A stretch of 64,000 nucleotides of DNA, taken from assembly GCF_029227855.1 (NCBI RefSeq), contig NZ_CP074356.1, one strand, 5' to 3'. A model generated the notes under the pieces. It was not told the DNA's origin and did not search any database. It worked only from the letters and a program-made list of their open reading frames with translations. Below are positions 26,729-38,044 of the stretch, in pieces (the stretch's first letter is position 1; each line of letters opens with the position of its first letter). Source of the DNA: Escherichia coli. Lineage in GTDB: Bacteria; Pseudomonadota; Gammaproteobacteria; Enterobacterales; Enterobacteriaceae. Position numbers and translations under genes: made by a program.

Positions 26729-28045
26729 TTAAGCGCGTTGATTGTCTTTCATCAACAAAGCGGTCATTGCGGAAATCAGGCATCCAGCCAGCAAATAAAT
26801 AGCGACGCTATGCCAGTTCCCGGCAAAGTAAGTGATGAGTGCAGCGGCAATAAAAGGTGTAAATCCACCGCCAACCACACTGGCAACCTGATAACCGACT
26901 CCAGCGCCACTATAGCGATAACTGGCACCAAACATTTCGGTAAACATCGGTTGTTGTACACACACCACCATATCATGCGCAATGTTTGCCAGCATGATGG
27001 AGAAGAAAACTATCCAGAAAATAGATTGTGCTTCAAGCGCCATAAAGAAAGGAAATGCGCTCAACGTTCCGAATAACGCACCTGTGATATAAACCCTGCG
27101 GCGACCAAAACGATCGGCAAGCCAGGCAAAACAGGGAATTGTCAGGCAGCTTAATCCACCGACCAGCAAACCAATATTAAGGAAAAGTTCGCGCGGTAAC
27201 CCCATATTCTGGGTTGAATAATTAAGTGCAAAGGCAGTAACAATGTACATCGTCAGCAACTCGCACAGTCGTAGTGCAATAATCTTCAGGAAAGCACCGG
27301 GATGTCGTAACAGAGCTTCGATAACCGGGATGCGTTTTTTCGCGGCCGCTTGATTATGTTGCTGTTGTTCAAATTCCGCGGACTCCTCCATGCCATTGCG
27401 CACCCACAATGCTCCCAGTACCAGTACGATGCTAAACAGGAAAGGAATGCGCCAGCCCCAGCTTAAAAACTGTTCGTCAGTCGTCATCATACTGATCAAT
27501 GAAACCAGTCCGGTTGAAAGCAGTAAACCTACTCCGTAGCCAACTTGTACACCGCTACTGTAAAAGGCTTTTTTATTTTTCGGCGCACTTTCAACGGAAA
27601 GCAACGCTGCGCCTCCCCATTCGCCGCCGACGGCAAATCCCTGAATGGCACGCAGTGTCACCAGCAAAATAGGTGCCCACCACCCAATGGTCGAGAATGA
27701 AGGAAGAATACCAATCAAGGCTGTCGCGATGCCCATCATCCAGACGGTCAGCATTAACATGCGCTTACGTCCCAGTCGGTCGCCAAAGTGACCGAAAATG
27801 ACACCGCCTAGCGGTCGGAAAAGGAAGCCGACACCAAAGGTGGCAAATGCGGCGAGCGTTCCCATCGCCGGGCTTACTTGCGGGAAAAACTCGCGATTAA
27901 ACACCAGTGCGGCGGTAATGCCATAGAGTAAAAAATCATACCAGTCGACGACGGCACCAGCGAAACTGCCTAACGCAGCTCGTCGGGCGCGACTTAACGA
28001 AAGCGTCCCTTCATCGGGACGAGTGGAGATGAGCGTGGAGTCCAT
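26729..28045 (-). CDS. shiA: Shikimate transporter (MFS)
   Basis: 438-aa 12-TM MFS protein. Confidence 0.9.
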   Translation of the reverse strand: MDSTLISTRPDEGTLSLSRARRAALGSFAGAVVDWYDFLLYGITAALVFNREFFPQVSPAMGTLAAFATFGVGFLFRPLGGVIFGHFGDRLGRKRMLMLTVWMMGIATALIGILPSFSTIGWWAPILLVTLRAIQGFAVGGEWGGAALLSVESAPKNKKAFYSSGVQVGYGVGLLLSTGLVSLISMMTTDEQFLSWGWRIPFLFSIVLVLGALWVRNGMEESAEFEQQQHNQAAAKKRIPVIEALLRHPGAFLKIIALRLCELLTMYIVTAFALNYSTQNMGLPRELFLNIGLLVGGLSCLTIPCFAWLADRFGRRRVYITGALFGTLSAFPFFMALEAQSIFWIVFFSIMLANIAHDMVVCVQQPMFTEMFGASYRYSGAGVGYQVASVVGGGFTPFIAAALITYFAGNWHSVAIYLLAGCLISAMTALLMKDNQRA

Positions 28046-28359
28046 AATGATCCTGTTTGTACTGTCTTTTTATAATTAGTATGGAAAAGGTAACTCACAT
28101 TGCCGTCGATCTATAAACGAACCTTATGAGACTACCTCGACAGAGCGCATCTGCAAATGATTTTATGGCTGATTAGCGGCAACATGAAAAATTCGATGGA
28201 AGATGAAAGCACGGGCGTTGCTGGTGTTGTTTAAGGATTAAGCAGAGCACCCACAGGTTCGAGATATGAAACATAAAAGTCCGCATATGTACAAAATAGC
28301 ACCCTGATGAGTCTGATAGACTGCATTGCATTATAACCAGTAGGGAGGCGAGGTTAGGT

Positions 28360-29412
28360 ATGTTTTTAGCATCATTGTTGAGACGTATTGCATTTAGTTA
28401 CTACGATTATAAAGCTAATAATTTCAATATTGGAAAAACAGACTTTGTTGTCATCCATATTCCCGATCAAATTGGCGATGCTATGGCCATCTTTCCAGTT
28501 ATTCGGGCGATTGAAATGCATAAAATAAAGCATCTTTTAATTGTTACTTCGACTATTAATTTAGAAGTCTTTAATGCGCTCAAACTTGAACAGACTAAAT
28601 TAACATTAGTTACAATGACTATGCAGGATCACGCAACATTAAAAGAAATAAAAAATTTAGCGAAGAACATAACACTGCAATACGGTACGCCGGATCTTTG
28701 TATAGAGGCGATGCGTAAAAAGAACCTGAAAACGATGATATTTATCAGTCAGTTGAAAGCAAAAACGAATTTTCAGGTTGTTGGTTTAACCATGAAGTGC
28801 TATTCCCCTTTGTGTAAGGACGCGTCCCGGATGGATCAGAGTCTCCGGGCTCCCGTACCCATGACATGGGCATTTATGATGCGTGAGGCGGGTTTTCCAG
28901 CAGTCAGGCCAATATATGAATTGCCACTAAGTGAGGATGTACTCGATGAGGTGCGCGAGGAAATGCGATCGTTAGGAGCTTACATTGCGCTCAATTTAGA
29001 AGGTAGTGCACAGGAACGTACATTTTCATTATCGATAGCAGAAAATCTAATAGCAAAAATTCAAAGTGAAACAGATATGCCAATAGTGATCGTTCATGGA
29101 CCAAAAGGGGAAGATAAAGCCAGGGTATTAGTGGATTGTTATAATAATGTCTTCCGTTTATCCTTATCACCCTCGATTAAACGTTCGGCAGCAATCATAA
29201 AAGATGCTTATATCGCAATAACTCCTGACACCTCAATATTACATATGGCAAGTGCCTATAATACCCCCGTTGTTGCAATTTATGCTGATTACAAAACGCG
29301 ATGGCCCGCAATGGCCGATGTTTCGGAGTCAGTCGTCGTTGGGCAAAAAATTGACAATATAAGTCTGGATGAATTCGCAAAGGCATTAAAAAGTGTTTTG
29401 GCGAGAATATGA
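28360..29412 (+). CDS. yeeL: Glycosyltransferase family 9 (heptosyltransferase-like) protein, apparently intact
   Basis: 350-aa uninterrupted ORF in AT-rich DNA at the yeeL position between shiA and yeeJ. Confidence 0.7.
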   Translation: MFLASLLRRIAFSYYDYKANNFNIGKTDFVVIHIPDQIGDAMAIFPVIRAIEMHKIKHLLIVTSTINLEVFNALKLEQTKLTLVTMTMQDHATLKEIKNLAKNITLQYGTPDLCIEAMRKKNLKTMIFISQLKAKTNFQVVGLTMKCYSPLCKDASRMDQSLRAPVPMTWAFMMREAGFPAVRPIYELPLSEDVLDEVREEMRSLGAYIALNLEGSAQERTFSLSIAENLIAKIQSETDMPIVIVHGPKGEDKARVLVDCYNNVFRLSLSPSIKRSAAIIKDAYIAITPDTSILHMASAYNTPVVAIYADYKTRWPAMADVSESVVVGQKIDNISLDEFAKALKSVLARI

Positions 29413-29673
29413 GGCAGTATTTATGCATATTAATGCCGATCTGTTATGAACGGTGGTGTCATCAATACTCTGTGGCTGGTCAATCATTACAGAAAGCCAG
29501 TCTTTGGAGCAAAGCTGTACTCACCGGATACAACCATAGTCACACCGAACGCGAATCTGGCGGTATCGCATTTTTATTTATTCATTTTCTGTGAGAGAAG
29601 GGCAAGTTCTGTAGAGGGAATGTAAAAAAGAGTGCCCCGAATGGAGCACTCTTTAAGGAATTATAGCGGAAAA

Positions 29674-37656
<7,983 letters not shown>

Positions 37657-37968
37657 GCTTACCTTCCCTGAACGAGCTAACATAAATGCGCCCTTTCTAG
37701 CACAGCGAAAAAATATAAATCCTGATAGCAATATGATTGAAAATTAATAACTTTTCGTTAGGCAGTTTTGGGTGTGAGTTGCAAGAGGGGAGACTACTGA
37801 ATTACTCAAGTTTTATAATCGAGGGGAAAATGGTGATGGCGTCCATAGCAAAACGCCCTCAACCATAAAGGTCGAGGGCGCTTAAGATGTCAAAAACCCG
37901 CTATCCGTTAAAAAGCAATGCTCAACTAAGGTCAGTGACATTGCGCTAAAAAGCAAATTTTTAGAATT

Positions 37969-38044
37969 TGGCTCCTCTGACTGGACTCGAACCAGTGACA
38001 TACGGATTAACAGTCCGCCGTTCTACCGACTGAACTACAGAGGA
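37969..38044 (-). tRNA. asnT: tRNA-Asn (GUU)
   Basis: Identical 76-nt tRNA-Asn on minus strand. Confidence 0.9.

Follow-up and report, generated by a model that had tools for sequence, protein, structure and literature searches.

Intact yeeL in Escherichia coli: an ordinary allele of a family 9 glycosyltransferase gene that is independent of the neighbouring adhesin gene yeeJ

The window analysed here is a 64,000-nucleotide stretch of an Escherichia coli genome (contig NZ_CP074356.1 of assembly GCF_029227855.1). Our analysis showed that the uninterrupted yeeL gene within it is an ordinary intact allele, the norm in most E. coli. The allele of K-12, B and some relatives, in which Gln235 is replaced by a stop codon, is derived, and the intact gene is the ancestral and majority state. 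We are highly confident of four points taken together, namely that the intact allele is common, that the K-12 gene carries a nonsense lesion, that the product has the fold and motifs of glycosyltransferase family 9 (GT9), and that the gene is independent of yeeJ. The fuller account, in which ancestral, intact yeeL is a stand-alone GT9 gene with a WaaU-like role in envelope glycans, includes an inferred acceptor, and we give it a probability of roughly 0.55.

The yeeL locus

An earlier note on this DNA had described an uninterrupted, 350-codon, family-9-like reading frame in AT-rich DNA between shiA and yeeJ, and we found exactly this. The frame begins with ATG, encodes 350 amino acids followed by a stop codon, has zero internal stops, and matches Pfam PF01075. 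Its GC content is 39.0%, compared to about 47-56% for shiA and 47-53% for yeeJ. The encoded protein is an exact match to RefSeq WP_000477867.1, annotated as "glycosyltransferase family 9 protein", and RefSeq genomes with the identical allele are annotated with the same shiA/yeeL/yeeJ layout. K-12 and the window also share the gene order shiA-yeeL-yeeJ-asnT-mtfA. The features of the locus are as follows:

26729..28045, minus strand: shiA (ORF list)
28046..28359, no strand: shiA-yeeL divergent intergenic region, 314 bp, presumed place of the yeeL promoter (promoter scan)
28343..28353, plus strand: Shine-Dalgarno-like GGGAGGcGAGG, its 3' end 6 nt from the yeeL ATG (sequence reading)
28360..29412, plus strand: yeeL coding sequence, intact, GT9-family GT-B glycosyltransferase (identical to WP_000477867.1)
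29627..29654, minus strand: hairpin with a 12-bp stem and a downstream T-run, present only on the minus strand, yeeJ terminator (terminator scan and sequence reading)
29674..37731, minus strand: yeeJ inverse-autotransporter adhesin, long variant, between yeeL and tRNA-Asn (ORF; RefSeq annotation of the identical locus)
37969..38044, minus strand: tRNA-Asn, asnT (ARAGORN on the window)

The position of the yeeL start codon is kept across genera in the family alignment. A promoter scan found no consensus sigma-70 site within 28046..28359, and the five promoter-like sites in the whole scanned region are at chance level (5.8 expected by shuffling). With an upstream interval free of sites and counts equal to the shuffled expectation, we regard promoter prediction for yeeL as uninformative. 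As an AT-rich gene without a consensus promoter, yeeL may be poorly expressed. No Rfam RNA element matched the yeeL locus at E<=0.1, and a role in anti-phage defence was considered and rejected, as PADLOC gave no match.

The K-12 lesion and the frequency of intact alleles

The yeeL gene of K-12 MG1655 (b4497) is annotated as a pseudogene, as the earlier note had said. It lies at the orthologous locus in the same position and has the same 1,053-bp length as the window ORF, with about 95% DNA identity. Both the translations and the DNA alignment place its sole lesion at codon 235 (window position 29062), where CAA has become an in-frame TAA; 22 further amino-acid changes separate it from the window protein.

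29062..29064, plus strand: yeeL codon 235, CAA (Gln) in the window and a TAA nonsense codon in K-12, BL21 and ABWA45 (translations, DNA alignment, probe counts)

The ABWA45 gene is annotated with an "internal stop". Of the complete E. coli genomes (5,426), 5,343 (98%) contain the yeeL locus, and 4,939 have a full-length match to the ORF. Probes for codon 235 gave an exact TAA match in 765 genomes, with at most about 65 more, and an exact CAA match in 1,185. The nonsense allele of K-12 and B is thus present in about 14-15% of complete genomes, and uninterrupted yeeL with Gln235 in at most about three quarters of them. Consistent with this, yeeL is annotated as intact in five of six genomes drawn from a spread ranking. 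Other inactivations in E. coli include IS insertions and truncations, and some truncated products are named as Shigella sonnei. The intact copy is not unusual, as the nonsense allele is in the minority and the exact window allele is already in RefSeq. The gene, its family assignment and its pseudogene status in K-12 are all already in public annotation.

YeeL belongs to a distinct GT9 subfamily

The match of YeeL to PF01075 (Glyco_transf_9) covers residues 233-321 only, at 29.1 bits against a gathering threshold of 22 (E = 7.6e-7), and distant members of the YeeL family score 28-52 bits. Because direct sequence and profile searches of the PDB gave only marginal matches (E = 0.076-1.5), structure prediction and fold search were required. 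These gave a GT-B fold of two Rossmann domains that is closest to solved GT9 enzymes, and closer to the LPS heptosyltransferases than to TibC. Four features of the protein are discussed below:

28474..28479, plus strand: Gly39-Asp40, the "GD" motif between beta1 and alpha1, presumed catalytic base equivalent to WaaC Asp13 (alignment)
28780..28848, plus strand: residues 141-163, a loop with Cys147 and Cys152, candidate acceptor-binding loop (pLDDT, conservation)
29017..29019, plus strand: Arg220, aligned to WaaC Lys192, a donor phosphate contact (hhalign of the family alignment against WaaC)
29224..29244, plus strand: Pro289-Asp-Thr-Ser-Ile-Leu-His295, GT9 donor-sugar motif, WaaC Asp261-Thr-Gly...His266 (HMM and hhalign to WaaC, WaaF and WaaU)

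The Gly39-Asp40 pair aligns with the GD of WaaC, WaaF, WaaQ and WaaU, and 20 sequences, with identities as low as 22%, all retain it; Asp13 is the catalytic Asp of WaaC. Arg220, a conservative change from Lys192 of WaaC, does not vary within the core family, and its conservation in the extended family is 90% or more. In the hhalign comparison to WaaC, D290/T291 correspond to D261/T262 and H295 to H266, with Ser292 in place of Gly, and P289, D290, T291 and H295 are all invariant in the extended family, again down to 22% identity. A check of catalytic residues had been proposed for this gene, and the GD pair and the D-T-S...H motif were both present, so the key motifs are not missing. In the family alignment the putative catalytic Asp40, the predicted phosphate-contact Arg220 and Asp290-Thr-Ser...His295 are the most conserved residues of YeeL. 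The equivalent of WaaC Glu222 is not clearly conserved and, together with the change of Lys192 to Arg, this means that the donor of YeeL could differ from that of WaaC.

YeeL shares only 11-15% identity with WaaC, WaaF and the Veillonella GT9 enzyme (PDB 2GT1/2H1H/6DFE, 1PSW and 3TOV, respectively), which are LPS heptosyltransferases. Unlike these, it has an extra N-terminal helix of about 27 residues with a conserved Asp-Tyr, as well as the conserved, family-specific loop at residues 141-163, which is predicted with a pLDDT below 50 and yet is strongly conserved in sequence in the core family. A metal site formed by Cys114, Cys147 and Cys152, by analogy to the iron finger of TibC, was considered and dropped, as these cysteines are invariant in the core family only and not in distant members. 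Against the NCBIfam heptosyltransferase equivalogs for WaaC (TIGR02193), WaaF (TIGR02195) and WaaQ (TIGR02201 and NF007742), YeeL falls far below every cut-off (38.1 vs 185.3, 18.7 vs 134.6, 16.9 vs 170.2 and 15.3 vs 467 bits, respectively). By these sequence comparisons, YeeL is a distinct, small and highly conserved subfamily of GT9.

Selection on yeeL

Among deep pairs of intact alleles, the dN/dS of yeeL is 0.13-0.38, significantly below neutrality in every comparison (P from 0.009 to 2e-9), and amino-acid polymorphism at family-invariant sites (2/96) falls short of the 8.8 expected (P = 0.002). In addition, 98 alignment columns show no variation across genera, with identities as low as 52%. 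Judged from these patterns, yeeL is under purifying selection and, because the catalytic motifs are also kept, the window YeeL is probably a working enzyme. The same dN/dS values are 3-5 times those of shiA (0.05-0.10) and the gene has been inactivated more than once, so its role is dispensable.

These data bear on a different reading of the intact frame, namely that yeeL is an AT-rich, horizontally acquired gene that is kept silent in the manner of H-NS targets and is drifting to loss, so that the window copy is simply not yet broken. We consider this unlikely. It would fit the 39% GC of the gene against about 50% in the flanks, its place in a variable region beside tRNA-Asn, the upstream region without a consensus sigma-70 promoter and the elevated dN/dS relative to shiA. 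It would also fit the independent inactivations (the TAA allele, IS insertions, truncations and the products named as Shigella sonnei), and close pairs of alleles reach a dN/dS of 0.56-0.84, a value that comes from only 3-7 differences per pair. A silent gene would nevertheless not be expected to show significant constraint in every deep comparison, avoidance of family-invariant sites and invariant columns across genera. Furthermore, a strong ribosome-binding site is retained, and each of the three sampled genomes with the same yeeJ remnant has an unbroken frame.

A proposed WaaU-like role in envelope glycans

The K-12 paralogue that scores best with the extended-family HMM is WaaU (RfaK of K-12, a putative ADP-heptose:LPS heptosyltransferase IV of the outer core), at 74.9 bits over its full length, followed by WaaQ (50.7), WaaC (35.2) and WaaF (30.3). 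WaaU is also first among K-12 paralogues with the core-family HMM, and its hhalign probability is 80%, vs 40% and 13%. Although the sequence similarity between them is very low, WaaU and YeeL share an N-terminal extension before beta1 and the common motifs "IIHxxxxxGD" and "SxDT..VHIAAAY". Their contexts differ, as waaU of K-12 lies inside the waa cluster and adjoins waaL, whereas yeeL is solitary between shiA and yeeJ/asnT. This holds throughout the core family (E. coli, Erwinia, Rosenbergiella, E. albertii and Pseudocitrobacter), in which yeeL is a solitary gene in at least five contexts and glycan genes are not nearby.

The association of YeeL-like proteins with envelope glycans comes from more distant relatives, 24-33% identical to the window YeeL. 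One of these (P0108) lies among genes for GT1, GT9, GT2, two Wzy_C proteins, WecG and Bac_transf; another (P0111) is beside Wzy_C, Bac_transf, WecG, GT4 and a flippase; and a third (P0115) is 32 bp downstream of a GT8 gene whose best match is LPS 3-alpha-galactosyltransferase. A fourth (P0136) is a fusion of Wzy_C, an O-antigen-ligase domain, to a YeeL-like protein. The contig of a further relative (P0109) is too short for informative gene context. As none of the neighbours of these distant relatives reached the NCBIfam equivalog cut-offs, the clusters can be named only as envelope-glycan clusters, and the term "LPS core" is not proven even there.

From these comparisons, we propose that YeeL would act as a cytoplasmic inverting GT-B glycosyltransferase. 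Its C-terminal domain would bind a nucleotide-sugar, most probably ADP-L-glycero-D-manno-heptose because most GT9 enzymes that have been characterised use this donor. Asp40 would deprotonate the acceptor hydroxyl, with the acceptor held by the basic N-terminal domain. Transfer of the sugar, with inversion, would then take place on the cytoplasmic side of the inner membrane. As the most likely acceptor, by analogy with WaaU, we propose the LPS core or a different lipid-linked glycan of the envelope, because WaaU is the closest K-12 paralogue and because distant relatives occur in Wzy_C/WaaL-type clusters and as a fusion to an O-antigen ligase domain. Envelope glycosylation, which the earlier note had offered as an example of a function, is thus a reasonable guess, and LPS-type heptosylation appears to be the likeliest form of it. 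Our literature search returned no functional study of yeeL and no substrate experiment on YeeL, and the name "yeeL" mostly matches authors. Six papers name both yeeL and yeeJ; three of these are, going by their titles, on metabolic engineering, and none of the six deals with yeeL function.

It is also conceivable that YeeL has the GT9 fold and is active, with a donor or acceptor that is non-canonical, for example a sugar other than heptose, ECA or some other glycan linked to Und-PP, or else a soluble metabolite. GT9 in the CAZy classification includes a GlcNAc-transferase activity, and the great distance of YeeL from the curated heptosyltransferase models (38 bits vs the 185-bit cut-off), the Arg220 replacement and the lack of a clear Glu222 equivalent would all leave room for another donor. 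In addition, the pathways of the Bac_transf, WecG and flippase neighbours of the distant relatives are Und-PP-linked ones and not the core waa pathway, and the core-family gene is solitary. We nevertheless regard this as improbable, since the closest structures and paralogues of YeeL are all ADP-heptose enzymes, the D-T-[GS]...H motif for sugar binding is preserved without change, and the O-antigen-ligase fusion points to LPS assembly. In Erwinia and Rosenbergiella an MFS gene lies about 155 bp upstream of the yeeL homologue, which would fit this reading. A conserved pairing of yeeL with an MFS transporter was rejected, however, because the Erwinia protein is not an orthologue of ShiA (E=0.1) and other lineages have no MFS neighbour.

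If YeeL is a WaaU-like heptosyltransferase whose gene lies outside the waa locus, it may attach a heptose or other sugar, conditionally and non-stoichiometrically, to the LPS core or the O-antigen attachment region in most natural E. coli. This would have been overlooked because K-12 and B carry the Gln235 stop and because expression of this AT-rich gene would be poor under laboratory conditions. As far as we know, waa-locus genes account for the published core structures of E. coli, and we put this proposal forward as a tentative and rather doubtful one.

yeeL is independent of yeeJ

With the terminator at 29627..29654 on the minus strand between them, yeeL (plus strand) and yeeJ (minus strand) are convergent, separate transcription units and do not form an operon. 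Their states are also uncoupled among the 10 genomes compared: yeeL is intact alongside a remnant or disrupted yeeJ in JJ1886, Seattle 1946, MIN10, UMNK88 and O103, and it is a pseudogene alongside intact yeeJ in K-12, BL21 and ABWA45. Beyond E. coli, yeeJ is absent beside the yeeL orthologues of Erwinia, Rosenbergiella, E. albertii, a clade at 73% identity, Pseudocitrobacter and one further organism (P0072). The orthologues of Pseudocitrobacter and the 73%-identity clade, which lack yeeJ, abut tRNA-Asn: with tRNAs located by ARAGORN on L017 and L008, the 3' end of yeeL is 50-95 bp from this tRNA. Thus yeeL is evolutionarily and transcriptionally independent of yeeJ, and the adjacency of the two genes would be best explained by both residing in the variable region beside tRNA-Asn (asnT). 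The earlier note had suggested that an intact copy next to yeeJ may be functional; a working enzyme is probable given its motifs and the purifying selection, and lying close to yeeJ gives no indication of function.

There are GT9-related heptosyltransferases that act on an adhesin encoded next to them. Aah and TibC heptosylate AIDA-I and TibA, respectively, in the cytoplasm before export, and these enzymes (PDB 4RAP for TibC/Aah) are GT-B heptosyltransferase relatives of YeeL whose genes adjoin the adhesin gene, as yeeL adjoins yeeJ in E. coli. It is very unlikely that YeeL is likewise a dedicated protein glycosyltransferase for YeeJ or other surface adhesins, as the convergent arrangement with a terminator, the uncoupled states and the orthologues in six other lineages without an adjoining yeeJ show neither co-transcription nor co-inheritance with an adhesin, TibC/Aah are not its closest structural or sequence relatives, the yeeL locus is present in 98% of genomes compared to about 40% with intact yeeJ (PMC5595812), and YeeJ functions in K-12, a natural yeeL null (PMC5595812). 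In that strain YeeJ is surface-displayed and promotes biofilm formation, and glycosylation is not mentioned (PMC5595812). On present evidence, yeeJ is not supported as a functional partner of yeeL.

Implications

The intact form of yeeL is the norm and its annotation is public, so the finding in itself matters little. Two points are of modest value: one is the recognition of the YeeL subfamily of GT9, and the other concerns laboratory strains. As K-12 and B are natural yeeL nulls through a single CAA-to-TAA change, any YeeL-dependent modification of the envelope, if there is one, would be invisible in standard laboratory work, and those who engineer K-12 with yeeL as a "neutral" integration site are right for K-12 only.

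Intact and disrupted yeeL alleles

The earlier note had described an uninterrupted, AT-rich ORF of 350 codons between shiA and yeeJ that resembled family 9 glycosyltransferases (GT9), and ORF calling, base composition and Pfam bore this description out throughout. The features of the region are as follows:

26729..28045, minus strand, shiA, flanking yeeL
Shine-Dalgarno-like GGGAGGcGAGG, plus strand, last base 6 nt ahead of the yeeL ATG
28360..29412, plus strand, yeeL, ATG start, 350 codons plus stop without interruption (ORF call)
29674..37731, minus strand, yeeJ, a very long ORF on the other flank of yeeL
37969..38044, minus strand, tRNA-Asn (asnT), beyond yeeJ

Past yeeJ, the tRNA-Asn gene is followed by an ORF at the mtfA position, with a tRNA-Ser also there, and the gene order around yeeL is that of K-12 in reverse reading. 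The yeeL start is well supported, since alignments with homologues of other genera begin at this first methionine. The gene has 39.0% GC and forms a composition trough with windows down to 34%, compared with 47-56% in shiA and 47-53% in yeeJ. Pfam Glyco_transf_9 matched YeeL at 29.1 bits (curated threshold 22), over residues 233-321 only.

The earlier note's statement that yeeL is a pseudogene in K-12 proved correct. In MG1655 it is annotated as such (b4497, exactly 1,053 bp), and alignment and translation revealed a single lesion, an in-frame stop at codon 235, with no frameshifts. This codon is CAA in the window (position 29062) and in UMNK88, and TAA in K-12 and BL21; an “internal stop” is flagged there in both BL21 and strain ABWA45. 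Every outgroup homologue carries a sense codon here, which makes TAA the derived state.

The shiA-yeeJ interval holding yeeL was matched in 5,343 of 5,426 complete E. coli genomes, and the yeeL ORF alone in 4,939 (coverage of at least 80%). Using two 57-nt probes centred on codon 235, we found the exact K-12 TAA context in 765 genomes and the exact CAA context in 1,185. Arithmetic on identity bands and an evenly spaced ranking limits TAA with one flanking SNP to at most about 65 genomes, and together these values place the nonsense allele in roughly 14-15% of complete genomes, many of them K-12 and B laboratory derivatives. No more than about three quarters of genomes have an uninterrupted Gln-235 yeeL; among six sampled down the spread ranking, five had an annotated intact 350-aa YeeL and one an internal stop. 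Further independent lesions among the genome matches include IS1 insertions (within yeeL in matches H3 and H31) and truncations. Three clusters of truncated “partial” YeeL proteins (P0042, P0052 and P0091, with 1,596, 1,984 and 421 members) are named Shigella sonnei, which suggests that yeeL was disrupted independently in that lineage.

At least 25 complete genomes carry the window allele with 100% identity, and 105 carry it with at least 99%; RefSeq lists it as WP_000477867.1, a “glycosyltransferase family 9 protein”, with gene order unchanged. Strain KE55 (NZ_CP141061.1; matches H1/H113) has an identical yeeL ORF and an IS3-family ISEc31 transposase in the shiA-yeeL-yeeJ interval (window-equivalent 28046-29673), placed outside the yeeL ORF because the match is broken into two pieces. 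An intact yeeL is not unusual among E. coli: the window gene, orthologous to a named K-12 pseudogene but intact, already carries annotation in thousands of genomes, and the finding is real but ordinary.

Conservation of the YeeL family

YeeL is a GT9 member by profile, fold and motifs. In a word-index search, its close homologues make up a narrow family with a sharp boundary, the next match having E ~1e-3.

Identity of close homologues to the window YeeL
E. coli: 93-96%
Second Escherichia-like clade: 71-73%
E. albertii: 67%
Pseudocitrobacter: 66%
Erwinia: 59-64%
Rosenbergiella: 52-56%

In nr, a protein of 353 aa with 73% identity to YeeL (P0078) bears the name “glutathione transporter [Rattus norvegicus]”, almost certainly through bacterial contamination or a misannotated eukaryotic record.

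A 26-sequence alignment has 98 invariant columns, and the AlphaFold2 model built on it (pLDDT 84.6, pTM 0.83) is confident except at residues 141-163. What the WaaC residues do is known from established structural work on that enzyme. In hhalign, Arg220 of YeeL corresponds to WaaC Lys192, a Lys-to-Arg difference, while Asp290-Thr291-Ser292 corresponds to Asp261-Thr262-Gly263 and His295 to His266; Gly39-Asp40, in beta1-alpha1, aligns with the Gly-Asp of WaaC (Asp13), WaaF, WaaQ and WaaU. An exhaustive profile search added relatives reaching down to 22% identity, across which V31, G39, D40, L132, N212, P289, D290, T291, H295, S298, A299, P303 and W315 are invariant and R220 is at least 90% conserved. 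The few positions without variation thus include the catalytic and donor-binding residues of GT9.

In the model, pLDDT drops below 50 only at residues 141-163 (window 28780-28848). This loop is near-invariant in the core family (VGLxMKCYSPxCKxASRMDQxxRAPVPMTW), contains two of its three invariant cysteines, and may serve to bind the acceptor or contact the membrane.

Deeply diverged pairs of intact E. coli alleles give dN/dS values of 0.13-0.38 (P against neutrality 0.009 to 2e-9), and of 96 family-invariant sites only 2 carry amino-acid polymorphism, where 8.8 would be expected (P=0.002). The earlier suggestion that the intact copy may be functional is a reasonable one, given the retained motifs and the signature of purifying selection. 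Constraint is weaker than on shiA (dN/dS 0.05-0.10), which, together with the recurrent knockouts, is the mark of a function that is useful but dispensable.

Relationship to yeeJ

Genomic context of yeeL homologues
Pseudocitrobacter: amn-shiA-yeeL-asnT-mtfA, yeeL end 50 bp from the tRNA, yeeJ absent
73%-identity clade: hchA-yeeL-asnT-mtfA
E. albertii: between a tonB-position gene and a yciA-like thioesterase gene
Erwinia and Rosenbergiella: after an unrelated MFS gene
One further organism: between maeB-like and eut-type genes

These contexts make yeeJ an E. coli-specific occupant of a variable region between yeeL and asnT. In the window, yeeJ fills the interval from the yeeL 3' end to asnT (29413-38044); the gap is 50-95 bp in Pseudocitrobacter and the 73%-identity Escherichia-like clade (L017 9053-9280; L008 11059-11331), so that yeeJ appears either to have inserted at a variable site next to tRNA-Asn or to have been retained there in this lineage alone. 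The AT-rich yeeL may be an older islet there. The window yeeJ is a long variant, with a 2,685-codon ORF from an upstream TTG; its CDS is annotated as 7,983 bp in an identical-allele RefSeq genome versus 7,020 bp in K-12, and its translation has near-identical internal repeats (PVTFVADKDSAVVVLQTSKAEIIGNGVDETTLTATVKDPFDNVV is present twice). This fits the UMN026-type variant, which has 906 bp more of Big domains (PMC5595812).

State of the two genes in compared genomes
K-12, BL21, ABWA45: yeeL stop, yeeJ intact
O157:H7 BB24-1: yeeL intact, yeeJ intact
JJ1886 (ST131), Seattle 1946, MIN10: yeeL intact, yeeJ remnant of ~2.1 kb
UMNK88: yeeL intact, yeeJ frameshifted
O103 ML775: yeeL intact, yeeJ truncated fragment adjoining an IS element

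The earlier note had also tied yeeL to the neighbouring adhesin, and this tie is unsupported. The two genes are convergent, and a strong hairpin at 29627-29654 terminates yeeJ, as its T-run is on the minus strand only. Their intact and decayed states are uncoupled across the genomes compared, the homologues in the relatives above have no yeeJ beside them, and YeeL lacks the contextual features that define the TibC/Aah adhesin-glycosylase family. Judged on predicted structure, the autotransporter heptosyltransferase TibC is a clearly poorer match to YeeL than the LPS enzymes. Intact yeeJ is found in only ~40% of genomes, and YeeJ expressed in K-12 is surface-exposed and promotes biofilm (PMC5595812); K-12, the strain of those experiments, is a yeeL null, and the paper mentions neither yeeL nor glycosylation.

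The yeeJ remnant common to JJ1886, Seattle 1946 and MIN10 (loci L012, L013 and L016) is annotated as a frameshifted partial Ig-like-domain pseudogene, and the match to the window ends at ~93% of the query. This indicates that an old deletion removed most of yeeJ in this lineage while yeeL stayed intact.

Predicted role of YeeL

Our literature search found no experimental work on yeeL. The core family offers no context clue to its role, since yeeL stands alone in each of at least five different surroundings. Informative contexts come from relatives with just 24-33% identity to the window YeeL. P0108 (E 2e-81 to the family profile) neighbours GT1, GT9, GT2, two Wzy_C genes, WecG and Bac_transf; P0111 neighbours Wzy_C, Bac_transf, WecG, GT4 and a flippase; and the GT8 gene that lies 32 bp upstream of P0115 has LPS 3-alpha-galactosyltransferase as its best NCBIfam match. 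P0136 (777 aa; L019 1955-4288) joins an O-antigen-ligase (Wzy_C) domain to a following full-length YeeL-like domain. No neighbour of these distant relatives reached an NCBIfam equivalog threshold. The P0136 record is metagenomic, its membrane domain is Wzy_C/WaaL-like, and its gene adjoins a GT4-polysaccharide deacetylase fusion gene; we are not aware of an earlier description of such a ligase-glycosyltransferase fusion.

Among the K-12 GT9 paralogues, the extended-family HMM scored WaaU highest (74.9 bits, full-length), followed by WaaQ (50.7), WaaC (35.2) and WaaF (30.3), with GT4 controls negative; WaaU was also the best of the four by the core-family HMM and by hhalign. WaaU, the putative outer-core heptosyltransferase IV, is encoded next to waaL in K-12. 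YeeL falls far under the cut-offs of the heptosyltransferase I, II and III models and lies outside the WaaC, WaaF and WaaQ equivalog families. Its N-terminal (acceptor) domain has invariant basic residues (R49, R119, K124, R163 and R175) and an “MRKKNxK” patch, which would suit an anionic glycolipid acceptor. The best explanation we can offer is that YeeL is a cytoplasmic, membrane-peripheral, inverting GT9 enzyme, with Asp40 as the predicted general base, that would use ADP-heptose as donor and the LPS core or another lipid-linked envelope glycan as acceptor. Points to set against this are the low identity of the informative relatives, the sub-threshold scores of their neighbours, the distance of YeeL from the heptosyltransferase cut-offs and the Arg at the Lys192 position; to our knowledge, waa genes also account for the core structures known from E. 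coli.

The remaining interest of yeeL is that it represents a well-conserved, uncharacterised, WaaU-like GT9 subfamily in most natural E. coli, and that, despite this presence, both main laboratory lineages are YeeL null.
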